Below, piece by piece: positions 3,658 through 55,893 of a stretch of 64,000 bases of DNA. The position numbers and the translations under genes are program-made. The notes under the pieces were generated by a model that saw nothing but the letters and a program-made list of their open reading frames with translations, made no database searches and was not told where the DNA came from. Position 1 is the stretch's first letter. Every line of letters starts with the position of its first letter. The DNA comes from Clostridia bacterium (lineage in GTDB: Bacteria > Bacillota > Clostridia > Christensenellales > UBA1242), in contig JAZUBK010000043.1 of NCBI GenBank assembly GCA_045638465.1, forward strand, positions 8,416 through 72,415, written 5' to 3'.

Positions 3658-6600
3658 TTATATTCTCATTCTACGTTTTACAACTATTACTCTGATGATT
3701 ATAGCCGCAAGAACTACACCCAAAGCTGCAGCTCCGTAATAGATAATTTCCATAGGAAACTCTTTCTTTTCTTCTACAATCAAAGTAAATTCTACAACAG
3801 AAGATGTATTACCATCACTGTCTACAAAGTATAATTTAATTATATATGTTCCAGGTTTGTTTACATCTACAGTGCTATCGTCAATATTCAAAAATCCGCT
3901 TTCTCTTAGATCTTTCCAACCGCTATTGATTGTGCCGTCTTCTGTATCTGTAATTTTGTACATAAAGTCATAAATATTAAACTTTCCACCTACAGGAATT
4001 GATGCACTAGTATTTAGCATTTCAATAATTGGGTTTCCGCCAGATACAACATGAATAGTAATAGATCTTTGTGTTTGGTTACCAGCGCTATCTTTGAATA
4101 GGTACGCTAGTTGATATTCTCTATCTCCACCAACAGTTGTTGCAAAGTCAACAGAAGGAACTTCCACTCCGCCTTTAAAGATTTTAACAGAAATAGGATT
4201 TAGTGCTCCGTCTATTTCGTCAAAAGCTGTAAAGTATCCGTCCGCAGTAAAGTCTGGATATTCTCTTCCTTTGATAAATGATGTTGTTTTGTCTTGAGCT
4301 AGTGTTACCTCTGGGGCTGTTTTGTCTACTATATTTAGTGTAACAGTGTACTCTTCACTCATAGCATCGTCGCTGTCGATAACTTTATATTTTAGATAAC
4401 CAACTCCAATAAAAGGAACATCTCTTTCTTGAACTTCATTGTATACGTCATGGAAAGAGATTGTCACTCTGCCATTTACACCAAATGAAAGGTTGGTGAT
4501 AATTGGTAATCCTTCACCATCTACAATACTGATACCGCTATTGATAAATTGAACACCACTAGCATCATCTGTTGCTAGAGATGATAAATCAAAAGTTATA
4601 TCATCAGTATAAGCAAATTCGTAATCTTTGTTTTGTCCTGTTGGAGCTTGGTTTTGAATCAAAATAGGAACAGTCAAAGTTGTTTCATTGTTTGATTGGT
4701 CAAATAATGTATATTTTACTGCATATTCTGCGATTTCTCTAAATGAATATCTTTCAAGTCCACCGCTAAAACTAAAACCTACGGTTGTAATAATTACATC
4801 ATTTGTACTTAAAGTAGAAGAGTTATCAGCAACATCTTCTAGGTATTCTCTAAAGTAAACTGTTGTATCTCTTCTAACAATAAGGCTATGATCACCTGAT
4901 TCTTCGTCATAAGTTAGAGTAATACTGTCGTCACCATCAAGATCCGCAAGGTAAATTGTTGGCGGTGTTTCGTCTTTAAAAATTATTTTATAGAAAGTGT
5001 TTTCGCTAGTAGAGTGGCCATCACTTACAAAGAATGTAAAAGAGATTTCTCCTGCCATAGCCATTGTTGGAGTAAAACTAAATTTTGTATGGTCGCTACC
5101 ATCTTGAGTAATAGTTCCTCTTGAAGATGTGGCGTTGTATGTGATAGTGTCACCATCATAATCGGTTGCATTGATAATAAAGTAAACTGATGTGCCTAGT
5201 GGTATTTCTTCGTTTACTGCGATATTTGCATCAGTTCCTTCTACTCTTGCCATTACGCTGATAATCTCTGGTGGAGTATCTACAATAACAAGTGTTGCAG
5301 TTGTTGTTCCTGTAAGAGAAGTATCTAAGTCTGTATAAGAGTATGTAATAGTGTAACTACCTGCTATTGTTGTGTCGATTGTTGGGTGGGTAATTATTAC
5401 TTTTGCTGGGTCTTGGAAAACATCTTCGTCAACGTAAGTTCCATCATATAAAACGATGTTTCTTAGGTTACCTCTTGCTGTTTCTTCGATATAATCTACT
5501 TCAGAATATTTTTCCACTTGAATTTCTGTTTGGTACAAAATAATAATTGGTTTTTGAGTTGCGGCTACTACAACAGATAGATAAACTATTTCTTCATATT
5601 CGCTTACAACATCATTCATATAGATTTCTAAGTTAAAAGTTCCTACACTAAGTGTTGATTGTCTCAAAGTAAGTTGTGCACTAAGTGGAGTTGTAAGTTC
5701 TGTATCTTCTGGAGCATAAGAAATATCGTAGCCAAGATCAAAAATATCTGTGTCGCTAAGTGCTGCACTTACATTTCTAAGTCCTGTTGTACAATTTACA
5801 TCAATAACAATATCCTCTCCTGCATTTATAGAAATTGTCTTTCTAGATGTTGTAGAAGTTGTTGGAATAGTTGTTCCACCATAAGATAATGAAATTGTAT
5901 CATCAAGTATTACTTCTTGTTCGATATATACATATAGACGACCAACTGTCTCTAAGTAGTTGTCCAAAACCCTTAGTCTATGTATAGGAATTTCTTGTTG
6001 GGTGTTAAATAATGTTTTATCAATTACACCATTCATAGATACAACACCTTCAGAAACAACACTACCATACATTAGTTCATCTACAGTATAAGTAGTTCCT
6101 TCGTCAAAATATGCAACAAGATAACTTTTTACAAAAGCCTCATCAAAAGTATATGATCCTACACTATCAGCGTCGATTGTTATAAGACCGTCGTATCCAG
6201 ATTTAAAGTAAACACCTTTGTTAGAAAAAGTTATTTTAAAAACTGAAACTGAAGTGTTATATGTATTTCCCCCTTCAGTAACTGTTCCATAATAATACAA
6301 ATTTAGATCGCCAGTGATGTTACCAGCAACAGTAAGGTATAATCTAGTAGAAGTATAAGAAAGAGCTTTTACCCCAGGGATTGAACTGGTTACAGTATGT
6401 GTTCCATTGCTTTCAGTTGTTGTATAAGGGTTACCTGCACTATCGCAAAAATGCAAAACTATAGTTCCTGCTTGTGAGTTGGCAAATAATCTAGAGTATG
6501 CAACAGAAGATAGTGATGGGTCTGAAACTTCGGTTAGTGCAAGGTCCAAACTTGCAGAATCGCTACTTGTTGGTAGAGCACCTGAGTATCTATACTTATT

Positions 6601-43964: not shown

Positions 43965-44594
43965 TTATTCGTCGTCTTCTTCGTATTCGCCGATACCAAA
44001 CTCTCTTTTTATTGCTTGGCTATATTGTCTTACGTGTACTTTGGCTCTCATCATACGATAATTCTTTATCTGACTTGCTCTTAATTTCGGCAGGTCGATG
44101 GCGAGCATCTCAAAACCATCCCAAAAGAATGTCCATGCGATAATTGATATAAGTAGGTCAACAAATGGTTGGCCCCATACATACAATACTACAAATTCTA
44201 AAAGCGCTACTAACACACCTAAAAGAAGTAGCATTGATCCCAAAAGAATATTTTTCTTCATTTCCTTATTTTGGGTTACTATCCTTTCGGCATAGTGTCT
44301 TTTTACGGCTCTTCTTATACGTTTTTTATCAAAGTTGTCAGTTGGCTCTTCGGTATAGATATCTATAGAGATATCGTCTTTTTGTGGAAATTGTCCAGCA
44401 AACATCTCTACATACTCTATAACGTCTTTGCTTACCATATCGTAAGTTTTGAACGAGCATGGATAGAAAAAGTCTTCTAGTTCTTTTAGTCCCACGTTAA
44501 TTATTGCATTGCCTTGGTCATCGTATTCGATATCTTCGGCTTCTTTCATCGGCGTACTTTTCTTTAATTTTCTTAAAGTTTTACTTCCAAACAT
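43965..44594 (-). CDS. Hypothetical membrane protein (cytosolic N-domain, 2 TM, acidic C-terminus)
   Basis: 209-aa ORF. Hydrophobic segments ILLGSMLLLLGVLVALLEFVVLYV and LLISIIAWTFFWDGF. Confidence 0.5.
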   Translation of the reverse strand: MFGSKTLRKLKKSTPMKEAEDIEYDDQGNAIINVGLKELEDFFYPCSFKTYDMVSKDVIEYVEMFAGQFPQKDDISIDIYTEEPTDNFDKKRIRRAVKRHYAERIVTQNKEMKKNILLGSMLLLLGVLVALLEFVVLYVWGQPFVDLLISIIAWTFFWDGFEMLAIDLPKLRASQIKNYRMMRAKVHVRQYSQAIKREFGIGEYEEDDE

Positions 44595-44737
44595 AAAATA
44601 TTTTTTTAATAAACTCCTTATGTCAATATTTCATTGACCACCATATTATACCCTTTTAAACATTTTTTGTCAAATATCCTAACATTGGGGCAATAGTAAA
44701 GGCAACCCAAAAGCCTTTTTGAGTTGCCTTATATTAT

Positions 44738-45325
44738 TTATACAAAGTCGTTTTGCTTTGGTTTTGATTTAGATTTCTTTGAGGCTTTTTCTTTGGTTTC
44801 ATTAATTACTGTTTTGATTTCTTTATAAAGTTCGTATGGATTTTGAACAGAATAAAAACTAAAAGCAGCTCCGCCACCTGCAGTCATTGGACTTGCCACA
44901 CTACCAAAACTAATTGTGCCTGTATTTTTGCGGAATAATTTGTCTAAAAGACCAACCCCTACATCAATCGCACCAATCATATCAATATCAAGGCTTTTAT
45001 AATCAACGCCAATTACACCACATCTTATGATAACTCTTTTGTTAGAGTAAGCATAAAATCTCTTTTTATAAGAAAGATATGTACAGAAGATAAGCAAAAA
45101 GTCTAAAACCACAACTATCGCAACTATTACAATTAATACGCCTATAGGTGCTACTTCTCCCAATTCGTCAGGAATAGTAACAGTCATAACGCCAAAACCA
45201 ACAAAGAATAATGTAAATATTATTGCGCCTAAAACACTAGACCAAAAGAACTTGAACTTATTTGGCTTTAATACTTTAATAATTTTTTCGTCGCTATCTA
45301 AGATATTGTCAAATAGATTTTCCAT
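44738..45325 (-). CDS. Membrane protein with bacterial PH (bPH_2/YdbS-like) domain
   Basis: 195 aa. Two TMs followed by YAYSNKRVIIRCGVIGVDYKSLDIDMIGAIDV, typical of the membrane-flanked bPH_2 family. Confidence 0.6.
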   Translation of the reverse strand: MENLFDNILDSDEKIIKVLKPNKFKFFWSSVLGAIIFTLFFVGFGVMTVTIPDELGEVAPIGVLIVIVAIVVVLDFLLIFCTYLSYKKRFYAYSNKRVIIRCGVIGVDYKSLDIDMIGAIDVGVGLLDKLFRKNTGTISFGSVASPMTAGGGAAFSFYSVQNPYELYKEIKTVINETKEKASKKSKSKPKQNDFV

Positions 45326-45351
45326 AATTATTCTCCTATTTATCTGGTTAA

Positions 45352-45852
45352 TTATTTTGTTGTCTTATTTCTTTTTAGATTCTCTTTGCTCTCATCAACA
45401 ACCTTATAATAAGAAGGAAGGCTAAGCAAAACCATCATTACTACAAAACCTGCGCCTGGCAAAAGAACTAATAATAAATAGAACCATTCTCTGCCACTAT
45501 CTTTAATTCTTCTTATGGTACAAGTTATGCCAGGAATTACTGTACAAATAAGATATACTATTCCTATCCATTGATAAGCTATCACTCCTAGCAAAGCAAT
45601 AATTACATTAACCATTGTCGCATACCAAAATTCTTTTACAGATGTTAGCGACTTAATATCAAATATTTTAACCCAAAAATCTCTTACGGCAAATCCCACA
45701 TCTACAAAGAAGTTTCTTTTGCGGTTGCTTTCTTTACTCTTTTTCAAAAGCATTCTTTCAATTTTGATTTCTCTTTCGGTCATCTTTTTTCCACACACTG
45801 GGCATGGCTCTTTTAAATTTTTAATTTCGTTTCCACATTTTGGACATTTCAT
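45352..45852 (-). CDS. Zinc-ribbon + DUF805-like membrane protein
   Basis: 166 aa. N-terminal CPKCG...CPVCG. TIRRIKDSGREWFYLLL resembles the DUF805 RR(L/I)HD(T/S)G(R/K)SGWW motif. Confidence 0.55.
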   Translation of the reverse strand: MKCPKCGNEIKNLKEPCPVCGKKMTEREIKIERMLLKKSKESNRKRNFFVDVGFAVRDFWVKIFDIKSLTSVKEFWYATMVNVIIALLGVIAYQWIGIVYLICTVIPGITCTIRRIKDSGREWFYLLLVLLPGAGFVVMMVLLSLPSYYKVVDESKENLKRNKTTK

Positions 45853-45870
45853 AAGTAGTTAAATTTCCTT

Positions 45871-46425
45871 TTAGTTGTATTTGTTGCAATATGGACATTC
45901 TGTGTCATTAGTGTTTTTTACATAAACACCGCCACAACCTTCGCACTTGATAGACCTTGCCTTGAAGGTCTTTTTTTCAAAACCATATATTGGCTCTTCG
46001 GTGATTTCAACAGCTGAGATATACCCAAACCTAAATAATCTGCTCACATATTTTCTGGTGCGCCTTGGTGACATTTTTAGCTTTTCGCTTAGTGACTGAT
46101 AATCTGTCACACCCTCTTGAATAAGTGCCCAAGTTCTTTTCATATTTCTTAGTCGTCGAAAGTTTGTCCAGATAAATGGTAAACCATAGAATCCTGCAAA
46201 CACACAAACGATTGAAAATACAAAAGTAACAAGAGATCTTTTTATATCAAAGGCAGACAAAATAATCATTGGTATACACGCTACAAACATCAGCGAAATA
46301 AGTATGCCAACAATCAAATTTAGTTTGATCTTTTTGTTAAGTTGATTCATTAATTTATTCCTTTTTACAATAGGTATTATATCATCACTAAAATATATTC
46401 CCAAACGATTTTGCACCATTGCCAA
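45871..46425 (-). CDS. Two-TM protein with a putative winged-helix segment and a C-terminal zinc ribbon
   Basis: 184-aa ORF. A later start at MNQLNKK is possible. CEGCGG...CPYC at the C-terminus. Confidence 0.5.
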   Translation of the reverse strand: MAMVQNRLGIYFSDDIIPIVKRNKLMNQLNKKIKLNLIVGILISLMFVACIPMIILSAFDIKRSLVTFVFSIVCVFAGFYGLPFIWTNFRRLRNMKRTWALIQEGVTDYQSLSEKLKMSPRRTRKYVSRLFRFGYISAVEITEEPIYGFEKKTFKARSIKCEGCGGVYVKNTNDTECPYCNKYN

Positions 46426-47065
46426 AAAAATTGCTTGTTTTATTTTTTGTCCCTATCCAAACTATTGCCTCATAAATCTTTTAACTTTCCACTCTAAAAG
46501 CATAGTATCTGTTTTGCTTTTTCATAAAAAATTACGTAAAAAACTCACAGTTTATTTTAGATGAAATAGGCATAAAAAAAATTACTCAAACATGCCGCAA
46601 ACAGCACCCCTAATCAAACCTTTATTTTCGACCATAAACTTAATAATTTATATGTCACGAATTTTCATTTTTATTAATTTTGTTGACAGATAAAAAGTCT
46701 CTAAAGTTATAACATTTTTGCAAATAAACGGCAATAAAATATTTTTCAATAAATAGACAATTTCTACTCATCTTACCCCGCCCCTTTAGCAACGGCCAAA
46801 AAACCGACCATGTGGTTTTGTTTCTCAAAAATTGCTTCACTTTTCCCCCGCAAATTGTGAGTCAATTTTTAGCCCAAATTATCACAAAAACCCCGCCGAA
46901 CGTTTGGTCTGATTTTTTATAAAAAGCCTATATTTAGGCGTTTTTTAATAAGACCAGACGGTCGGAAATGATTTTTTATCATCAGAAGAAAAAAGTGAGA
47001 AAACCACCCTAAAAAACACCTCAAAAAATGTTGCAAAAGTGCCACTAATTTTTGAACAAAAAGGA

Positions 47066-47094
47066 TTGAACTTTTAACTTTCTTAGTGTATAAT
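47066..47094 (+). promoter_or_regulatory. Near-consensus sigma-A promoter of the giant-protein operon
   Basis: TTGAAC (47066-47071), 17-nt spacer, TATAAT (47089-47094), preceded directly by TG. Confidence 0.6.
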
Positions 47095-47144: not shown

Positions 47145-47166
47145 AGTTAACAATTAGTTAACAATT
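47145..47166 (+). repeat. Perfect tandem 11-mer AGTTAACAATT x2 in the operon leader (candidate operator)
   Basis: 47145-47155 and 47156-47166 are identical. Each copy contains the palindrome GTTAAC. Confidence 0.7.
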
Positions 47167-47222: not shown

Positions 47223-47972
47223 ATGGCAAGAAAAGCTAGAGAAATCAGCATCATTAATAGTTATGTTATTTGCTTTAACGCTAGAGAGAATTTGACCTTT
47301 GACGTGGGTGATAAAAGAAACTTTTTGTCACTACTAAATGGGCTAAAATCTGACGGCTTTGAACTTCTTGCCTACAACTTAAAAGACAGGGCTTTTTATC
47401 TTTTTGCTTTTGATATCAAAATGAGCATTGACACTTTGCTTAGAAAGATTGCAGTTAGATTTGCAAAAAGCTACAACCAACGCCATTGTCGCAGTGGTAA
47501 AGTTTTTGCTGATAGAGCGACTACTACCCCAGCCCAAAATTATGACGATGTTATTTCTATGATTTTGAGGATACACGAACTTAACGATATTCAACCTACT
47601 AAGTTTTGTAGTTTCAAAAAATACTTTGAAGATTCTAATATTGACCAAGCCTTTATTTTAGAAAAGTTTGGCTCTGAAGAAAACTTCTATGAGTATTCTA
47701 AAAACAAAAGCAACGTATCAACTGACTCTTTACAAAAGAAACTTTCAGACAACGAATTAGAAGAATATATCTTCAACACATACAAACTAGATAGTGAAGA
47801 AATCAAAAACTTATCTACTCGCAAAAAGGAAAACTTCGTAACTAGTTTGATCAAACTAACCAAAGCCTCAGCTAGACAAATAAGTAGAGTTACTAGTTTA
47901 CCTTTGAGATTCCTTTGGGACTTGTACAAAAAATCTTCAACAGAGGAAAGGAAAGATGGAGAAGCAAGATAA
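47223..47972 (+). CDS. Y1/HUH (IS200/RAYT, COG1943-type) transposase-like protein lacking catalytic residues, with a C-terminal DnaA-C-like HTH
   Basis: 249 aa. MARKARE..., LLAYNLKDRAFYLF, SGKVFADR, ILRIHELN align to the family consensus MPRKAR..., AYCLMxNHxHLL, GHLFQDRF, LRYIHxNP. C-terminal ASARQISRVTSLPLRFL is HTH-like. Confidence 0.65.
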   Translation: MARKAREISIINSYVICFNARENLTFDVGDKRNFLSLLNGLKSDGFELLAYNLKDRAFYLFAFDIKMSIDTLLRKIAVRFAKSYNQRHCRSGKVFADRATTTPAQNYDDVISMILRIHELNDIQPTKFCSFKKYFEDSNIDQAFILEKFGSEENFYEYSKNKSNVSTDSLQKKLSDNELEEYIFNTYKLDSEEIKNLSTRKKENFVTSLIKLTKASARQISRVTSLPLRFLWDLYKKSSTEERKDGEAR

Positions 47973-49221
47973 CAAAACAGATAAAGATTTGCCTTTAGAA
48001 AAAGTTAATAAGTCTACTAAAAAATCATCTACAAAAAAGCCACCTCAAAAAACTAACAATAGTGGCAAGAAAAAAGAAATCGAACTTCCAAAGTTTGAGT
48101 ACAAAAAACTTATCAATGAAGATGATGTAAAAAAAGAAGACTCTTTATCTAAAGTAGATGAGTTAACTACTAATTCTATAAAGACAGACAAATCTAAAAA
48201 ACTAAATAAATCTAAAAAAGAAAAAGCCAAGGCAAAAACAGATGAGCCAAAGCAAAAGAAAAAGTTTAACAAAAGATCTTTTGTTTCTATGTTAGTACTT
48301 TTTGTTTTGGGTATCAGTTCGGGACTTTTTGCTGGTAATTGGTATGCAACAAACTTTATAGCAGGACCAGCTACCGACTATAGTTTGTTTTCTGAAGTAG
48401 AACTTAGAGCGGGTAACGACAAAATTGCAGCAGACTACGCAAACAAAGTTCCAACAGCAGATAGTGCATGGAAATCATTTATCGCAGCAGAAAAGAACTT
48501 TTACTCTGCAGATACATTTGATATTTTGACCAACGGCGTTGTTGATACTATCGTAAAACAAGATTTTTATTCTAGAAAAATCTACAACGGCGAAAAATTT
48601 TATTTTGAACAAATAAGTGACGGTATGGTTGCGGTGGCTAGTAAATATGTTTATGAGCCATCTAAATATATCTTGGAAGACAAATCAACACACATTGTTT
48701 GCTCAAAGGCAAAACTTAACGGAACAAGAACTATTAACGATTATCTTACTTGTGATTTTGGCTGTAAGCATGGCAACAAAAATGCTTATATCTTTAACAC
48801 AGATTATTCAAGCAAAACAACTACAATGACAGAAGATGAGTTTATTGAGGCTCTTGGCGGCAAGACTCTTAGCCCTATCTCTTATATAGTCTCTGACAAA
48901 ACCGTACTATCTTGCGGAAAGTTCAAGGTAGTTGGCAGTGGAGACGACACTAGATATACATTTACTATGAACTTACATAGTGGCGCTTCTGTTCTAAACT
49001 ATGTTAAACAAATGAAAACCGTAAGTGGTTTGTCAGATTTTCCTACATTTACCGAAGTCGTTTTTAACGTTAGCCTTCAAATGCTAGACGGCAAGGTAAT
49101 GTTTGATTATATATGCATCTCAGAAAAATATAGCGTTCCTTATGGTTCACTTACACCTAAATGTACAGGAACACTACACCAAAGATTTTTATTTAACGGG
49201 GATTATACAATTCCTGCTTAG
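47956..49221 (+). CDS. Single-pass anchored protein: ~105-aa Lys-rich N-terminus, TM, ~295-aa extracytoplasmic domain of unknown fold
   Basis: 421 aa. Overlaps the upstream gene by 17 nt. TM is FVSMLVLFVLGISSGLFAGNWYA. Confidence 0.65.
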   Translation: MEKQDNKTDKDLPLEKVNKSTKKSSTKKPPQKTNNSGKKKEIELPKFEYKKLINEDDVKKEDSLSKVDELTTNSIKTDKSKKLNKSKKEKAKAKTDEPKQKKKFNKRSFVSMLVLFVLGISSGLFAGNWYATNFIAGPATDYSLFSEVELRAGNDKIAADYANKVPTADSAWKSFIAAEKNFYSADTFDILTNGVVDTIVKQDFYSRKIYNGEKFYFEQISDGMVAVASKYVYEPSKYILEDKSTHIVCSKAKLNGTRTINDYLTCDFGCKHGNKNAYIFNTDYSSKTTTMTEDEFIEALGGKTLSPISYIVSDKTVLSCGKFKVVGSGDDTRYTFTMNLHSGASVLNYVKQMKTVSGLSDFPTFTEVVFNVSLQMLDGKVMFDYICISEKYSVPYGSLTPKCTGTLHQRFLFNGDYTIPA

Positions 49222-49230
49222 GAGAAAGTT

Positions 49231-52200
49231 ATGAAAAAATTTCTAAAAGGATTGAGATACTTTTTGTGCTATGTGGCAATAACGCTATCCACAGCTGTAG
49301 GCGTGGTTGTTTATCAGTCAAATAGTGCAGGTAGTGTTAGCAACGGAAATTTAGCAGGTTCTACCGTAGGACAGGTAGAAAATAACTTAATGGAAGTTGT
49401 TACAAACTTAATGGACCTTGAAAGTTTTAATGTAAATAGCTCTGTATCATTAACTGATACCACAAAGCCTTCTTCAACACCTATTGATATTGACTTTAAT
49501 ATCGATATCAACCTAGGCACTGGGTTTTCTTCTATAGAGGCTGATGGTGTATTTGATATAGCACTAGACAACAAAACTTTTGATGTAGCAATTAGGTTTG
49601 TAGATAATACTTTCTATGTTTCTGCACTAGACCAAGATATTCAGTTCACAGCATCTGGACTTGTCGAGGGTATTGGCGGCGTACTAGCACTGCTTGATGT
49701 AGACCTTCCACTAGACAGTAGCCTTATGGAAAACTTTGACGTTACTGCACTTCTTGGATATATGGGTGAGTACAAAGAAGTAGAAACCGAAACAGGATAT
49801 AATATAAACCTTGAGTTTATGGGTTATGATATAGCAATGGTTTGCGACAACTTGTTTAACTTAAACTCAGTAGTAATAGAAAATATGGCTATTGAAGGGT
49901 TTAAAATTGACCTAAACTTAGGACTTGAAACTTATGAGCAAAAGGTTGAAATCACAAAACCTCAACATAGCTTTATAAATCTTGATACAGTAACAAGCCT
50001 TGTTAATATGACTCAAGATGTTTTAGAAAACAACTTTGTTATGGCAGATATCTCTGCAAGTTACGAAGGTATAAACCTAGACTTTAATGCTAAAGCAGAT
50101 TTTTCAGACAACTTTATTATGAGTCTTACAACTCCAGCTTTTGACGGAATTAACTTCTCTTTCAAAAATGGCAGTTTGTATGCAAACGTTGGCAACCTAA
50201 AAGTTAAAGGAAGAGCTGCCGATATATCTACAATAATTGATTTCGTAAACGGAGACTTGAGAGCAAATATCGAAAGCATCTCTCCAGAAATTGTAGAAAC
50301 TATCACCTCTAAGACAAATGAGATTACTTCATCTATCTCAAACGAACTAAAAAATATAGATGCAAATAAGCTTCTTGATTATATAGACTATCTAACAATA
50401 TCAGATAACCAAATCATTATTGATATACCAAGCACTGCCAAAGTTGTAATAGATATTGAAAGTGGTTATATTACTTCAATTACTGCAAACGCCTATGGCG
50501 TAGATCTTACAATAGATAATATATCTTTTGAAAAACAAGCTATCGAAATTAACACAAATGACTTTGTTGATTTTGACAAAGTATTCCCAACTTTCAAAAC
50601 TTTTGTAAACACACTATTTACAAAAGGTATCAGTGGTACAATGACATTTGGCCGTGGAAACAAAACAAACTCTCTAAACTACGGAATAAGATATACAAAC
50701 CACTTCGAAACAAGTTTTGATACAACTATATTAAACAAAACAGTTTCTGTAGTTTCAGACAACTCAAAAGTTTATTTGATGGTAGATGGCATAAAGGTAA
50801 ATGTAGACCTTGCCGAATACCAAACAATTATTGATTACATAAACGAAACCTTTAATCAAAACATTTCTTTGCCTAGCTTTGAGATGCCAGAGATTGACCC
50901 ATACACAATGGTTGTCGGGGCTATCTCTTCTATAGATTATCTAAAAGCTATTGATAGTGGCATCGAACTATCTATAGGCGGAATTGTTATCCAAATTATT
51001 TCAAACGAAAACTATATCCAAACGCTAAATGTAAAATACAACGATTATTCATTTGCTCTAAATATTACAGGTTACGGCGAAGTTGAATTGTTTGACATAG
51101 ACAAAGACGACTACCTAGTATTTAGCGATCTTACAAACTACGTAGACAAAGCAACAAGCTTTGCAAATAGCACAAGCTTTAATATGCACCTTGGCATTAT
51201 GGCAGACATAAATGGCACAGACATTACAGCGATGGCAGACGGAAGAGTTGGACTAAACGGAAATGTAGAAGCAACCGTTACTACTACAGTTAATGATTTT
51301 GGCCTAGATTTCTCTATGGCTTTGACTGATGATGCTTTGGGCCTAACATATGACGGACTAAACGTTTATGCAAAACAATCATCAATTGGTGCTCTTACAA
51401 ACATTATCAAAAACATTGTTCCAAATTATGTAAATATTGATAGTTTGCTACAACAAAATAATATAGACCTTGATAAAACACTAAGCTCAGACATTAAACT
51501 TCCTGCTATAGATACAAAACAACTTATCTTAGCAGTAAAACGACTAAATCTTAACAAAGATACTCTAACAGCAGAACTTGACTGCAGCGAATTCACTTCA
51601 GGCGAAAAATCAACTGCAATTGTCGTTGTAAGAATGGTAAATGGCGGATACGAACTAAGAATAGGTTTAGTATATAACGATATAGTTATTAATTTGTACC
51701 TAAAACTTACTTCTACAGAAGACTTTACAGCTTCTATTCCAGCAGATGCAATCGATGTGGAAGACTACTTAAATCTTGTAGAATATATGCACAATACAAT
51801 CGATAGCAGAAATCTAGCACTAGACGTAACTGCAACAATCGACCAAACAGAAATTGTAGCTAAAGTTCTTGCAGACTTTAGATCTACTCTAAAAGTTAAA
51901 GCAACAACAGAAAGTTTGGGTAGCAAACTAGATGTTGTTTATGCAAGTGATATAAACAAACTACTTGTTACATTTGGTGATATCAAAATCTCAGGCAAAT
52001 CTTCTGACCTTGCAGATATCCTAAACTTTGTAAAAGTAGACCTAAACAATGCGCTTTTAACTTATGGCGAAAAGGCTTTGTCAAAGGTTAACTTTGAAAG
52101 TCTAACTCAAAGCAAAGATACAACTATTACATTTGAGGATATAAAAGATATCCTACACTCTATCACATTTGGTGATGACACAATTAGTTTTGTAAAAGAT

Positions 52201-55200
52201 AACATTGTTGTTACTTTGACAATTACAAACAAATCAATCTCAAATATCAAGTTTGCTATAGATAATATCGTAGTAAATGTAGGTGTTTCAGACAATACCC
52301 AAGCAATTACATACACAACTGCAGGTTATAGTGCATTTGAAAACATCTTGGATAATCTAAAAGCAATTACAAATGTTGCAACCTCTCAAGCTTTTGGCGG
52401 AAAGGTAACTATAACTTACAACAAAGATAAAACTTACACAGGAAACCTAAAAGTTAACTACATTAATAATGTATTGAGCGTTCATGTAGATTCTAACGTC
52501 TACGACCAAGATATATCTATTGATATTATTGGCTCTATAGTTTATGTAAAACTAAACGAACTAAAACTTCAAGTTTCTTGGGCAGAAAGATATGCTCTTC
52601 AAGAATATCTAAATTCAAAATTTGATTTACAATTAGATATTGATGCTATATTCAATATGGCAAAAGGCGTTGCAAGTTCTACAAAAGACTTTAGCCTAGA
52701 CAATATCAATATCGACTTTATCTCAAACTTTGTAGCAAACAAAAACGGCCTTGACATTACAGTAAGTGATATTCCTGTATCTCTTGGCATCGCAAAATAC
52801 GGCGACACTGACAAAAACTATTTGTCTTATATCTCTGCAGGTTATGACAAATTTGACATTTCAATTAACGAAATGACATTTGGTCAAGACGCAATAGTAA
52901 ATAGCGTAAACGCAACAGAATATCACAAGTACACAGACTTTACAAAATATTTCGACGAGATAGAGAGATTGATCAACGCATCTAAAGATAGCGCAACAGA
53001 CCAATACACTCTAAAAGGCGGAATCAAACTATACAAACTAGACGCAAACGGCAATGCTCTTGTAACTGATGGAGTTGCAGATGAAATCACAATCTCTATT
53101 AATGATTTGAAATTTGACGCAACCAAGAACACCTTTATTGGCGGAATCGATGCTAAAGGCTCTGGCTCACTATACGAAAGTTACCTTTCTGGCTATGACC
53201 ACAGCTTTGATGCGGCATATGATTATAACTTCATCTATTTTGATTACAACGGCCTAAGAGCTAAGTTTAGTAAACAAAGTAACAGTGAGTTTATCACCAC
53301 TCTAAAGAAAATGCTTCCTACATATCTTGGCGACACTCCGCTTACAAGACAATTAGTTTCTATATTTGATATGATTAGGTTTGACACTATGGGTAATATG
53401 TTATTCAACCCAGTAAAACTTGACGTAACATACAATATGATAGAACAATTTGCTCCTATGCTATCTACACTAAAATTAGAAGAAAATGGCAGCCTAACTA
53501 TTGGACTTGACATCTCTACACTAGACCCAACATTTAAAGAAGAATTGCTTTTGAATGTATCTATTGACGAAAGCGGTAGACTTGCTCTAGTTATAAACAA
53601 ATTCAAACTAACAAAAGATCTTGCTATTGACTTTACAATCTATGTAGACACTGCAAGTACCTTTACTGTAAATCCAGAGGGCGACTATCTTGATATGACT
53701 TCTATTGGCAAACTTCTTAGCGATTTTGATAACACAGCCCAAAAGACAACTACCGACAACGAAGTTTATAAACTAAACCTAAGTGGTAGCTTCCACCTAA
53801 AGATTGCAGTAAGCTTTATCAAGATCAACGAAGATATCCCATTTAAAGCACAACTTATCATCGATAGAAACAGCAATCAATTAATCGAAGCAAAAATCGA
53901 AGTTGATATGCCATCTATTATTTTAGTTACCGATGGTTGCTACTCAACTCTATATCTAACCAATAGACTAGAGGGCGAAAATATTTTGTATATTGATAGA
54001 CAAGGCAAAGACCCTCTAAAATCAAAATACAAAGTAAGTGAGCTTGGCGCTAACCTACTAAATGTTATTTCTGATATTACTGCAATATCTTCATCAACCC
54101 TAGAAACATTTATGACTATGGACATCAAATATATCGATGGCCCATCTAAGGCAGAAAATGTATTGAAAGATTATTCTTGCGTAACAGGAATAAATACAAG
54201 AGATTATACTATTGGCCTAGACCTAAGACAAATTACTCGTATGGATATGATGCTTGGCTACTCTGCATCTAACCCTACAGGAGTTGTTATCCATTCACAA
54301 AACAACGCTTTCTCATCAATTGATATCAACAATATAACCTTAGAGGCTATATCAAATGTATTTATTTATGTAAATGGTACAATCGACCTTACAAAGATAA
54401 ATCAAACAAGTGATATTATAGGCGAAATCGAAAACCTTGACGCTACACTTTATGGCTCATGGGGTGATGGTAGCTTAGTTGCTGACTTTATCGAAAATGG
54501 TGGTAGCAACGTTCCAAACAAAATGGGAACAACTGGTAGAAGCTTTACTCTTCCTGTTCCTGTAAAAGAAGTTGTAAACGGCAACACCTTAGAAGTTTAT
54601 AAATTCCTTGGCTGGAGCCTAAATAGTGACGGTAGCGGAGAGCTTTATAACGGCAAATATATGTTCGAAACAAGTTCTCTTACATTCTACGCTGTATGGG
54701 AGCTAGATACTGTCTACACAAGCAGAACAATTAATTTTGTTACAGAGTATCTAATGGCAAATGGTATCGATAGTAAAGTAGAAAACAATATATCATCTAT
54801 TACAAACTATAATGGATACGACATCTCAAACAGCTTACCAACTATAAGCGACACAGTTACTATCTACTACGAAGACGAAGGCGTATCTATCACATATAGA
54901 TATGACGGTTTATTTAAAACAAGAACAGTAAATAGTGACGGAACTATTGTCTATAGCGACAAGTTTGATCAAACAGTTATGCCAAACGAAGATTTGACAT
55001 TGTATGCAAGTTTTGTGGAAATCGACAGAGTTTATAAGAGAAAACTTACTATCTTAGATGAAAGCAAGACTTTGTACGAAGGTTACTTCGTAGAAGGCGA
55101 TGTTATCGACATCTTGAGTTTGGTTGCATACAAAGATACAACTAGATGGTATGATGATTATGACGCTACTGCTACAACAAGATACACCAACGAAATCTTA

Positions 55201-55893
55201 ACAGTTGACCTTCCAACCACAATGCCAAGAGGAAATGACCTATCACTATATGTTAGAAATAAGTATACTATTACTTATACTTCAAACTTCGGTGACAAAA
55301 AGACATATACTCAAACAGATTATCAAGGAGAACCTATTTCTCTTCCTACTCAAACAAGTTATGAAAATATCGTATACAAAGAAGAAAAAGATTCTGACGG
55401 AAATAAGATTCCAAACTACCTATCAACATTTGTATATGAAGGTTATACATTGAGTACTGATTCTTCAGTTGCAGTACCAAGCGTTATTCCAAGCAAAAAC
55501 GCAACATATGCAGCAAAATGGTCAAATATAACTACAAGTTATGTAAAAGTTACCTTCTCTTCTCCTTGGGTAAAACCAAGTGCTTGGTGGTTTGGTTGTT
55601 CTCAAGAAGTGGCGCCTAGAGGAACTCTTGTAAGATATGTTCTAAACGGCTCAACTCTAAACAATACAACCCTAAGCAAAAAGACCTCTATTATTGGTCT
55701 TACTGCAAACGAAGACGAAAACATTTCTGACTACTGTGTATATAAATATGCTATAAAATATAAATTCTCTATTACCGTATGGAATAAAGAAGGCGCTAAA
55801 AACCACAACACAGGAAGTGCAACAGCAAAGAGTTGGACAATTACTGGCGATACAACATTCTATGGAGAATGGGAGTGCACAGGCATTGTTTAA
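49231..55893 (+). CDS. Giant (2,220 aa) N-terminally anchored exoprotein with ~195-aa periodic modules and C-terminal Flg_new-type repeats
   Basis: Uninterrupted ORF with RBS AGGAGA. N-terminal helix YFLCYVAITLSTAVGVVVY. Seven recurring beta-strand/helix anchor motifs. C-terminal YKFLGWSLNSDGSGELYNGKYMF..LTFYAVWE. Confidence 0.8.
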   Translation: MKKFLKGLRYFLCYVAITLSTAVGVVVYQSNSAGSVSNGNLAGSTVGQVENNLMEVVTNLMDLESFNVNSSVSLTDTTKPSSTPIDIDFNIDINLGTGFSSIEADGVFDIALDNKTFDVAIRFVDNTFYVSALDQDIQFTASGLVEGIGGVLALLDVDLPLDSSLMENFDVTALLGYMGEYKEVETETGYNINLEFMGYDIAMVCDNLFNLNSVVIENMAIEGFKIDLNLGLETYEQKVEITKPQHSFINLDTVTSLVNMTQDVLENNFVMADISASYEGINLDFNAKADFSDNFIMSLTTPAFDGINFSFKNGSLYANVGNLKVKGRAADISTIIDFVNGDLRANIESISPEIVETITSKTNEITSSISNELKNIDANKLLDYIDYLTISDNQIIIDIPSTAKVVIDIESGYITSITANAYGVDLTIDNISFEKQAIEINTNDFVDFDKVFPTFKTFVNTLFTKGISGTMTFGRGNKTNSLNYGIRYTNHFETSFDTTILNKTVSVVSDNSKVYLMVDGIKVNVDLAEYQTIIDYINETFNQNISLPSFEMPEIDPYTMVVGAISSIDYLKAIDSGIELSIGGIVIQIISNENYIQTLNVKYNDYSFALNITGYGEVELFDIDKDDYLVFSDLTNYVDKATSFANSTSFNMHLGIMADINGTDITAMADGRVGLNGNVEATVTTTVNDFGLDFSMALTDDALGLTYDGLNVYAKQSSIGALTNIIKNIVPNYVNIDSLLQQNNIDLDKTLSSDIKLPAIDTKQLILAVKRLNLNKDTLTAELDCSEFTSGEKSTAIVVVRMVNGGYELRIGLVYNDIVINLYLKLTSTEDFTASIPADAIDVEDYLNLVEYMHNTIDSRNLALDVTATIDQTEIVAKVLADFRSTLKVKATTESLGSKLDVVYASDINKLLVTFGDIKISGKSSDLADILNFVKVDLNNALLTYGEKALSKVNFESLTQSKDTTITFEDIKDILHSITFGDDTISFVKDNIVVTLTITNKSISNIKFAIDNIVVNVGVSDNTQAITYTTAGYSAFENILDNLKAITNVATSQAFGGKVTITYNKDKTYTGNLKVNYINNVLSVHVDSNVYDQDISIDIIGSIVYVKLNELKLQVSWAERYALQEYLNSKFDLQLDIDAIFNMAKGVASSTKDFSLDNINIDFISNFVANKNGLDITVSDIPVSLGIAKYGDTDKNYLSYISAGYDKFDISINEMTFGQDAIVNSVNATEYHKYTDFTKYFDEIERLINASKDSATDQYTLKGGIKLYKLDANGNALVTDGVADEITISINDLKFDATKNTFIGGIDAKGSGSLYESYLSGYDHSFDAAYDYNFIYFDYNGLRAKFSKQSNSEFITTLKKMLPTYLGDTPLTRQLVSIFDMIRFDTMGNMLFNPVKLDVTYNMIEQFAPMLSTLKLEENGSLTIGLDISTLDPTFKEELLLNVSIDESGRLALVINKFKLTKDLAIDFTIYVDTASTFTVNPEGDYLDMTSIGKLLSDFDNTAQKTTTDNEVYKLNLSGSFHLKIAVSFIKINEDIPFKAQLIIDRNSNQLIEAKIEVDMPSIILVTDGCYSTLYLTNRLEGENILYIDRQGKDPLKSKYKVSELGANLLNVISDITAISSSTLETFMTMDIKYIDGPSKAENVLKDYSCVTGINTRDYTIGLDLRQITRMDMMLGYSASNPTGVVIHSQNNAFSSIDINNITLEAISNVFIYVNGTIDLTKINQTSDIIGEIENLDATLYGSWGDGSLVADFIENGGSNVPNKMGTTGRSFTLPVPVKEVVNGNTLEVYKFLGWSLNSDGSGELYNGKYMFETSSLTFYAVWELDTVYTSRTINFVTEYLMANGIDSKVENNISSITNYNGYDISNSLPTISDTVTIYYEDEGVSITYRYDGLFKTRTVNSDGTIVYSDKFDQTVMPNEDLTLYASFVEIDRVYKRKLTILDESKTLYEGYFVEGDVIDILSLVAYKDTTRWYDDYDATATTRYTNEILTVDLPTTMPRGNDLSLYVRNKYTITYTSNFGDKKTYTQTDYQGEPISLPTQTSYENIVYKEEKDSDGNKIPNYLSTFVYEGYTLSTDSSVAVPSVIPSKNATYAAKWSNITTSYVKVTFSSPWVKPSAWWFGCSQEVAPRGTLVRYVLNGSTLNNTTLSKKTSIIGLTANEDENISDYCVYKYAIKYKFSITVWNKEGAKNHNTGSATAKSWTITGDTTFYGEWECTGIV

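Follow-up and report, generated by a model that had tools for sequence, protein, structure and literature searches.

A stretch of 64,000 nucleotides from a Clostridia bacterium (assembly GCA_045638465.1, contig JAZUBK010000043.1; this whole stretch is called the window throughout) carries a gene whose 249-aa product joins an N-terminal domain of the Y1/HUH transposase fold, from which the catalytic residues have been lost, to a C-terminal helix-turn-helix (HTH) domain. The gene heads an operon that continues with a membrane protein and a giant surface protein, and it is preceded by a 17-nt motif, TGTTGCAAAAGGGACAC, that is conserved in register with the promoter and is related to the terminal inverted repeats (TIRs) found beside catalytically intact relatives. 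From these comparisons we consider it probable that the protein is a domesticated, dead Y1 transposase of the RAYT/TIRYT type (RAYT stands for REP-associated tyrosine transposase, and REP for repetitive extragenic palindromic) which now acts as an autoregulatory transcription factor, with a former transposon end as its operator. The original prediction, made by reading the window itself, had described a Y1/HUH fold with both catalytic signatures replaced, fused to a DnaA-C-like HTH and acting as a DNA- or hairpin-binding regulator; the peptide strings that it quoted are all present in the translation, namely MARKAR (residues 1-6), LLAYNL, RAFYLF (56-61), SGKVFADR, ILRIHELN (114-121) and ASARQISRVTSLPLRFL.

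Relationship to the Y1 transposases

The kinship of the window protein with the Y1 transposases is visible only transitively; the two were linked only by an exhaustive profile search and by comparison of folds. Direct searches of Pfam, NCBIfam and the PDB (the last with phmmer and with a profile), using the protein and 28 close homologues as queries, returned nothing meaningful. The Y1 transposase profile PF01797 matched neither the window protein nor any of the 28 homologues even at expectation values (E) of up to 1, and NF047646, the profile for REP-associated tyrosine transposases, did not match the window protein; the homologues themselves carry neither names nor precomputed Pfam domains. 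A family profile made from the alignment of these 29 sequences was then used for an exhaustive search of 1.84 billion representatives, which brought back 7769 proteins within an E limit of 1e-3 and 1431 within the stricter 1e-10, and it ties the family to PF01797-positive proteins of about 250 aa with E values of 1e-22 to 1e-35. Proteins that lie just outside the clade of dead proteins score 37-64 bits against PF01797 (Y1_Tnp), for which the cutoff is 23, and 70-84 bits against NF047646. These intact relatives have the two-domain layout of the window protein and contain both NH[VIL]HLL and RYIHxNP, and one of them, from Desulforamulus aquiferis, bears the annotation 'transposase'.

The AlphaFold model of the window protein (predicted local distance difference test, pLDDT, 83.8) has the order beta-alpha-beta-beta-alpha-beta-alpha, followed by a helical domain. 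Its top PDB match in Foldseek is 4ER8, the E. coli TnpA_REP with a REP hairpin (E 1e-4, target template-modelling (TM) score 0.66, 152 columns), and the runners-up are the TnpA proteins of IS200, ISDra2 and IS608; as modelled, the N-terminal domain is an HUH domain of the RNA recognition motif (RRM)-like fold. The kinship with IS200/RAYT proteins that had been proposed from consensus motifs is thus upheld by the family profile and by the fold, both of which give significant similarity to the Y1 family, while a direct match to the PF01797 profile is absent.

Loss of the catalytic residues

The catalytic columns were located by chained alignments, of the window protein with intact relatives and then of the intact relative P0053 with 4ER8, in which the published TnpA_REP active site consists of H59, H61, Y115, N119 and H123. 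The two histidines H59 and H61 correspond to A57 and Y59 of the window protein, the catalytic tyrosine Y115 to R116 and the metal ligand N119 to L120, and the region of H123, the NPxKAG segment, is deleted. The window protein reads R-A-F-Y-L-F for NHxHLL and L-R-I-H-E-L at the columns of RYIHxNP, and the deletion that follows ILRIHELN amounts to 7-9 residues, varying with the sequences aligned. RAFYLF lies on a predicted strand (57-63) and R116 in a helix (107-123), which are the positions expected of the HUH strand and of helix alpha-D. Both replacements that had been proposed, of the HUH motif (A57-F58-Y59 in the aligned column) and of the catalytic tyrosine by arginine, are therefore seen in alignment, together with the change of the asparagine ligand to L120. 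An intact HUH motif elsewhere in the protein is ruled out, since it contains just two histidines, at 88 and 118, and no HxH. The equivalent columns vary across the dead clade (A/N/D/T/I..., Y/S/L/V... and R/K/N/D/E/Q...), and thus no substitute active site is conserved.

All 48 dead representatives group in a single neighbour-joining clade, and every one of them lacks both histidines and the tyrosine; among the remaining 122 of the 170 top representatives, 94 have His-His-Tyr intact and 26 show partial losses. Members of the family at 31-95% identity to the window protein share 24 invariant columns, which cluster in the N-terminal MARKAR..S....Y and in the segment TKASARQISRVTSLPLRFLW, and the ratio of nonsynonymous to synonymous substitution (dN/dS) is 0.08-0.18, with dS saturated. 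The gene is found once per genome (28 loci in 28 assemblies, all GTDB species representatives), in uncultured gut or rumen metagenome-assembled genomes (MAGs) labelled Clostridia, Christensenella, Eubacteriales, Bacilli or Coprobacillus. By these comparative measures the gene is under selection and is not decaying debris. That fold, HTH and transposon-end arm (described below) all persist under strong selection without any catalysis suggests that what is selected for is the binding of DNA.

Some observations on the wider family may be added. The partial-loss relatives include P0055, P0075, P0082, P0095, P0139 and P0144 among others, from which the first histidine and often the tyrosine are gone; P0075 and P0095 end in ...VWLL, and positions 5001-5816 of locus L162 are listed among these family members. 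With 26 partial losses among 170 top representatives, catalytic decay seems to be recurrent in the wider Y1-HTH family. A phage origin is unlikely, given that the viral contigs of IMG/VR contain no relatives. One contig labelled Alistipes finegoldii (L021, CAVEBU010000015.1) holds a family locus with a typical operon at 40% GC; since every other host is a Firmicutes-type MAG, this label is probably a binning or labelling error.

The C-terminal HTH domain

When modelled separately with AlphaFold 2, the C-terminal domain consists of five helices, of which the last belong to the HTH (pLDDT 93). The segment TKASARQISRVTSLPLRFLW is nearly invariant in the family, the invariant HTH columns being T213, S216, A217, R218, Q219, R222, T224, P227, R229, L231 and W232, and the PF01797-positive relatives have the same architecture of a Y1 domain with a C-terminal HTH. 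Isolated C-terminal segments gave weak matches to the generic Pfam families HTH_24, HTH_7, HTH_3 and MarR, and a PDB profile search with the domain found designed repeat proteins and, weakly, HipB, Lrp/AsnC and NtrC-type regulators. The domain is accepted as an HTH.

While the HTH of the original prediction is retained, its DnaA-C qualifier is weakly supported: PF08299 was never matched, whether by the whole protein, by the homologues or by isolated C-terminal segments, and hhalign against E. coli DnaA domain IV (with a sequence confirmed to be identical to 1J1V) gave a probability of 0.4%. In Foldseek the DnaA domain IV structures 8BTG, 1J1V and 3PVP do occupy the top ranks for the full domain over 69-74 columns, at non-significant E values of 2.3-5.7 and TM scores of 0.46-0.52. 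Used for a topological resemblance of the model, 'DnaA-C-like' is a plausible label, and it is in line with the description of subclass 2.1 by Quentin et al. (2018).

A conserved motif upstream of the gene

Alignment of the upstream regions reveals the 17-nt motif TGTTGCAAAAGGGACAC. With up to 2 mismatches allowed, the plus strand of the 300 nt upstream of the gene in 35 non-redundant loci (10.5 kb) contains 36 matches, distributed over 29 of the 35 loci, as against 2 matches elsewhere in 1.15 Mb on both strands; the remaining 6 loci have versions with one indel or greater divergence. In the whole window the chance expectation for matches with up to 3 mismatches is 0.16. Near-matches away from the site (window positions 45882-45898, with 3 mismatches; 9367-9425 in L011; about -633 from the gene in L013) are all explained, because the reverse complement of the motif encodes Cys-Pro-Phe-Cys-Asn and the CPxCN zinc-ribbon codons of neighbouring genes read antisense as the motif. 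The upstream copies do not have such an antisense coding origin: most of their spacings (21, 31-32 and 65-67 nt) are not divisible by three, and their synonymous positions are all invariant. Binding sites of the sigma-54, Spo0A, CcpA, CodY, Rex and LexA types were compared with the motif by eye only, and none fits.

For the copy nearest the promoter, the distance from the end of the motif to the -35 box of a near-consensus TTGACx-17-TATAAT promoter is 5-7 nt or about 15-17 nt, two values one helical turn apart; the exceptions are the window (20 nt) and L038 (13 nt). Extra copies lie 21 or 31-32 nt further upstream, or 66-67 nt downstream just past the -10 box; in about 8 loci this second copy stands some 13-14 nt after the -10 box, and so would be transcribed. 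These near-whole-turn spacings fit a protein bound to one face of duplex DNA. The nucleotide invariance of the motif spans proteins that share just 30% or so identity, in parallel with the near-invariance of the HTH. Just two loci of the dead clade, P0043 and P0044, have an HTH that diverges (RQ[IV]VKVTGLPFRFVY); these carry TGTAAC/CGTAAC instead of TGTTGC in the 5' half of the motif and an unaltered AAAAGGGACA half, which is a possible covariation of HTH and motif. Together, the phased motif and this possible covariation in two loci are the comparative evidence for a putative role as a sequence-specific transcription factor.

Intact relatives and the origin of the motif

Sequences containing GGGAC lie beside the gene in four of the five intact relatives (with HUH and tyrosine) that were examined. 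P0047 (L159/L160) has a 33-nt inverted pair with GGGGACG, the right arm of which overlaps the stop codon; P0053 (L161) is bounded on both sides by perfect hairpins with AAAAGGGACAGTCCCA (also given as AAAAGGGACAG hairpins); and P0069 (L165) has a 33-nt inverted pair, GTGCAACAGGGACAGTCCCCGTTGCAC, whose arm TGCAACAGGGACAG agrees with the motif core TGCAAAAGGGACAC in 12 of 14 letters. In P0057 (L166) there is no pair: AACAAAGGGACAG is found upstream of the promoter and a short GGGAC match, GTCGTCCC, just past the gene. The flanking layout of the intact relatives is that of a 'TIRtron' and agrees with the TIRYT signature GGGGWSAS. The motif is absent from P0045, the closest intact relative.

Around the window gene no inverted-repeat or hairpin pair was found, in keeping with the original prediction, and the upstream copies are in direct orientation only; the lack of an inverted partner thus argues that the dead clade kept the left arm alone, in direct orientation by the promoter. 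The motif is tied to the protein family itself by its kin beside intact genes that lack envelope neighbours. The three intact relatives with enough flanking DNA to judge (P0045, P0047 and P0053) are stand-alone genes amid housekeeping genes. The partly degenerate P0095 is likewise a stand-alone gene, just after birA-bioY.

An operon with membrane and giant surface proteins

The dead Y1-HTH gene is followed by a gene for a single-pass membrane protein of 276-421 aa and then by one for a giant protein of 768 to more than 3000 aa in 23 of 29 loci, and two further contigs end before gene 3. The same trio occurs in the separately fetched loci L001, L004, L005 and L007, and it persists down to family members at 28-35% identity, so that the link between HUH-less members and giant-protein genes for which a survey had been proposed is systematic in the dead clade. 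In most loci the stop codon of gene 1 overlaps the start codon of gene 2 or lies almost next to it; in the window the predicted overlap is present and is 17 nt long, and the placement of the gene as the first of an envelope operon holds as well. Each of the two downstream proteins has one N-terminal transmembrane segment. C-terminal to this segment the gene 2 protein has a conserved domain of about 290 aa, presumed to be extracytoplasmic; the protein matched no family in Pfam and, searched as an alignment profile, nothing in the PDB. The C-terminal region of the giant protein is related to the Listeria-Bacteroides (Flg_new) repeat; the relationship is weak in the window protein, and the orthologues in L015 and L020 pass the PF09479 cutoff. 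No neighbouring open reading frame (ORF) was seen to resemble TnpB, and the two proteins encoded downstream gave no such match when scanned with Pfam. The claim that this is not a mobile element is accordingly sustained by the want of a TIR pair and of a TnpB-like neighbour, by single copy and by fixed synteny.

The operon and its surroundings show some local variation. Residues 1-105 of the window gene 2 protein (47956-48270) form a Lys-rich, low-complexity extension of about 100 aa before the transmembrane segment, which is of full length only in the closest relatives (L009, L010), is shorter in L011 and L013 (transmembrane segments from about residues 49 and 71) and is absent from most orthologues, in which the transmembrane segment begins within the first 25 residues or so. 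The rabbit-gut 'Bacilli' MAGs L023, L025 and L027 keep the dead Y1-HTH gene and gene 2 and have, in place of the giant gene, a run of ORFs of 200-450 aa; their two motif copies are 21 nt apart. On the other side of the window gene, a divergent cluster on the minus strand (43965-46425) encodes four small proteins (166-209 aa) predicted to be of membrane or zinc-ribbon type, one of which resembles a DUF805-type upstream neighbour in L001-L003 (148 aa, PF05656); through this shared neighbour, upstream synteny is partly kept at 49% identity of the family protein.

A model for exaptation, and its alternatives

We propose that the ancestor of the clade was a TIRYT-type element with a C-terminal HTH, whose left inverted repeat adjoined its own promoter. 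In a single ancestor of what is now a clade of uncultured Firmicutes from the gut (MAGs labelled Clostridia, Christensenella and Bacilli), the HUH histidines, the tyrosine and the asparagine ligand would have been lost, and with them the right-hand inverted repeat, the fold, the HTH and the left-hand arm being retained. The transposase would thereby have become a site-specific DNA-binding protein controlling the promoter already present upstream of its gene, under which two envelope genes were then placed. In the present-day operon the protein would bind the 17-bp TGTTGCAAAAGGGACAC as double-stranded DNA, at a distance of one or two helical turns on the upstream side of the -35 box. The HTH probably reads the 5' half, TGTTGCAA, and the dead Y1 domain may read the GGGACA half or may serve as a module for oligomerization, for an effector or for contact with RNA polymerase; this division of labour is suggested by the two-locus covariation and by the constancy of GGGAC among relatives with differing HTHs. 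Sites at about -50 or -60 would suggest activation, and those that closely follow the -10 box in loci of the Christensenella-like subgroup would suggest autorepression in addition. Whether the whole sequence of events amounts to a complete exaptation of a transposon to a regulatory circuit within the HUH/Y1 family, with transposase turned transcription factor, TIR arm turned operator, a captured giant-surface-protein operon and maybe bipartite recognition, is a proposition to which we give roughly equal weight for and against.

Several points weigh against an autoregulatory transcription factor of this kind. Translational coupling with a membrane protein is atypical of a simple regulator, and the mode of recognition is uncertain in that HUH domains normally bind single-stranded DNA or hairpins. 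The proposed binding and role in expression are argued from comparison among members that all come from uncultured organisms. The covariation amounts to two loci, and in L012 the 5' half of the motif varies with no obvious change in the HTH; the window copy is itself degenerate in the GGGACA core (GTGCCA), and the motif is imperfect in the closest relatives L009 and L012 too. Nor can a regulon be defined, since a metagenome-wide scan for the 17-mer gave mostly chance matches: at least 120 stretches were returned and, among the matches listed, 108 fell within ORFs of DNA from unrelated environments, and only 2 added new loci of the family.

Of the alternatives, the one that survives best, though we think it unlikely, is that the protein binds the motif either as the single-stranded DNA of an R-loop or open complex or as part of the RNA of the 5' untranslated region (UTR), and acts through attenuation, mRNA stability or translation. 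The Y1 fold is kept and the N-terminal MARKAR...S...Y residues common to the active relatives are invariant, TnpA_REP is known from published work to bind its hairpin and a 5' tetranucleotide base-specifically, and the second motif copy present after the -10 box in about 8 loci would be transcribed. Against this, the motif consists of one arm for which no hairpin partner is conserved, its promoter-proximal copy lies upstream of the -35 box and would not be transcribed, the copies are spaced in step with the helical turn of duplex DNA, and it is the HTH that is the most conserved part of the protein.

It is somewhat less likely again that the motif serves another host factor and that the dead Y1-HTH protein works with the envelope proteins in a role other than regulation, such as that of a cytoplasmic adaptor for assembly or export that translational coupling would keep in fixed ratio to them. 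Such a role would suit the close junction of gene 1 with gene 2 in most loci (stop and start codons that overlap or nearly touch), and in the window the gene 2 protein has its Lys-rich cytoplasmic extension of about 100 aa; most gene 2 orthologues, however, have almost no cytoplasmic segment (their transmembrane segments start at residues 1-25), relatives of the motif flank intact genes that have no envelope neighbours, and the near-invariant HTH argues for DNA binding. Finally, a decaying IS200/RAYT-type remnant or pseudogene, or a mobile element with non-canonical catalysis, is very improbable: the catalytic residues are indeed missing, and sequences without HuH and Y were treated as likely pseudogenes by Quentin et al. 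(2018), but the protein is full-length in 48 representatives and 28 GTDB species, with a dN/dS of about 0.1, a single copy, a fixed operon position, neither TIR pair nor TnpB, and catalytic-equivalent columns that vary with no substitute active site conserved.

Comparison with known systems

The best structural match to the window protein is TnpA_REP/RAYT (E. coli YafM, 4ER8, NF047646), with which it shares the class-2 landmarks MxRxxR, G-x-[VL]-F-x-x-R, the I-H of YIH and the Ser motif after the catalytic helix; the window family is also single copy and vertically inherited, as are the RAYTs. TnpA_REP is a monomer. Unlike TnpA_REP, the window protein has H59, H61, Y115 and N119 replaced and the H123 region deleted, and it has an extra HTH domain; unlike RAYTs, it has no REP or BIME repeats in view and no direct NF047646 match.

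The TIRYTs, which correspond to subclass 2.1 of TnpA_REP, combine the Y1 domain with a C-terminal HTH (Bac_DnaA_C, HTH_23 or HTH_28) and have no REPs (Quentin 2018, PMC6006769; Di Nocera 2013, PMC3733652). Their repeat signature GGGGWSAS (Di Nocera 2013, PMC3733652) resembles the AGGGACAC or GGGGACAG found here, and the intact near relatives that we have identified are typical TIRtrons. The described TIRYTs keep HUH and tyrosine, unlike the dead clade, in which catalysis is lost, only the upstream repeat arm is kept, as one or two direct copies in promoter register, and the gene is part of an envelope operon. The RAYT and TIRYT papers describe only catalytically intact proteins, HuH- and Y-less sequences having been discarded as likely pseudogenes (Quentin 2018, PMC6006769), and our full-text searches of the literature turned up no Y1 transposase described as catalytically dead and acting as a regulator. 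Y1/HUH transposases of the RAYT/TIRYT type have already been called 'domesticated', and it is to this lineage that the dead clade belongs; the 17-nt motif is newly described here.

Other comparisons are more distant. The TnpA proteins of the IS200/IS605 elements (IS608, ISDra2; PF01797) have the RRM-like HUH fold in common with the window protein, which differs from them in having no PF01797 match, HUH or tyrosine and no subterminal hairpins, TnpB or multiple copies. DnaA domain IV (PF08299; 1J1V, 8BTG, 3PVP) has a matching five-helix order that ends in an HTH, at a non-significant E of about 2.3 and TM score of about 0.5; DnaA boxes are asymmetric, as is the 17-nt motif, although the motif is not a DnaA box. 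The TldR proteins, nuclease-dead TnpB-like repressors (bioRxiv 10.1101/2023.11.30.569447), offer the closest conceptual parallel, as a functional analogy only, in that a protein from an element of the IS200/IS605 family lost catalysis and has a transcription-factor role that is either shown or proposed; TldR derives from TnpB/RuvC, is RNA-guided and has been shown experimentally, whereas here the protein is of the Y1/HUH type and recognition by the protein itself is proposed.

Other features of the window locus

The features of the locus are collected in Table 1. Two further elements that had been singled out upstream of the gene as candidate binding targets, a tandem 11-mer and a palindromic element at 46896-46965, are both present, and we considered each as the family-wide site before rejecting them, as they are conserved in the two closest loci only and the family-wide site is that of the 17-nt motif. 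The tandem 11-mer is kept in sequence and position only in L009 and L012 (AGTTAATAATTAGTTAACATTT and AGTTAATATTTAGTTAATATA), and it is in exactly these three loci, the window included, that the 17-nt motif is imperfect; the 11-mer, in a 5' UTR predicted to be long, could serve as a second operator particular to this clade or as an element of the RNA. The element at 46896-46965 is a long imperfect palindrome in the middle of an intergenic region of about 800 nt between divergent genes, with a core at 46926-46939 that resembles a bidirectional terminator (GCCTATATTTAGGC flanked by T and A runs). It is conserved in L009, it has no match in Rfam, and a shorter related element, CCGAAC-N-GGTCG, lies upstream in L001, L010, L011 and L013.

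Table 1. Features of the dead Y1-HTH locus, in window coordinates
Feature	Position	Strand	Details
Gene for catalytically dead Y1(HUH)-HTH protein	47223..47972	+	249 aa, ATG start; operon gene 1
N-terminal Y1/HUH-fold domain, residues 1-123	47223..47591	+	AlphaFold 2 secondary structure, pLDDT ~90; Foldseek matches
Codons 56-61, RAFYLF, HUH column (NHVHLL in intact relatives)	47388..47405	+	Alignments; predicted strand
Codons 114-121, ILRIHELN, equivalent of the (L)RYIHxNP helix	47562..47585	+	Alignments; predicted helix 107-123
C-terminal five-helix HTH, residues ~172-240	47736..47942	+	Invariant columns; AlphaFold 2 domain model
Window copy TGTTGCAAAAGTGCCAC of the 17-nt motif TGTTGCAAAAGGGACAC; proposed operator	47029..47045	+	2 mismatches
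Sigma-70-like promoter, TTGAAC, 17 nt spacer, TATAAT	47066..47094	+	20 nt 3' of motif
Tandem 11-mer, AGTTAACAATT twice	47145..47166	+	Predicted 5' UTR
Gene 2, single-pass membrane protein	47956..49221	+	421 aa; transmembrane segment ~107-128
Gene 3, giant surface protein	49231..55893	+	2220 aa; N-terminal transmembrane segment or signal anchor

Implications

One protein and one 17-bp site make an unusually clean and testable pair for the study of RAYT-like protein function. If the proposed conversion of a dead Y1 transposase to a transcription factor is true, it would be the counterpart of what happened to the other gene of the IS200/IS605 elements, where TnpB gave rise to TldR. The three-gene module that it heads, conserved and unannotated, with proteins of 770 to more than 3000 aa, is found in uncultured gut Clostridia, Christensenella-like and Bacilli MAGs, and its regulation could matter for the surface or adhesion phenotypes of these organisms.

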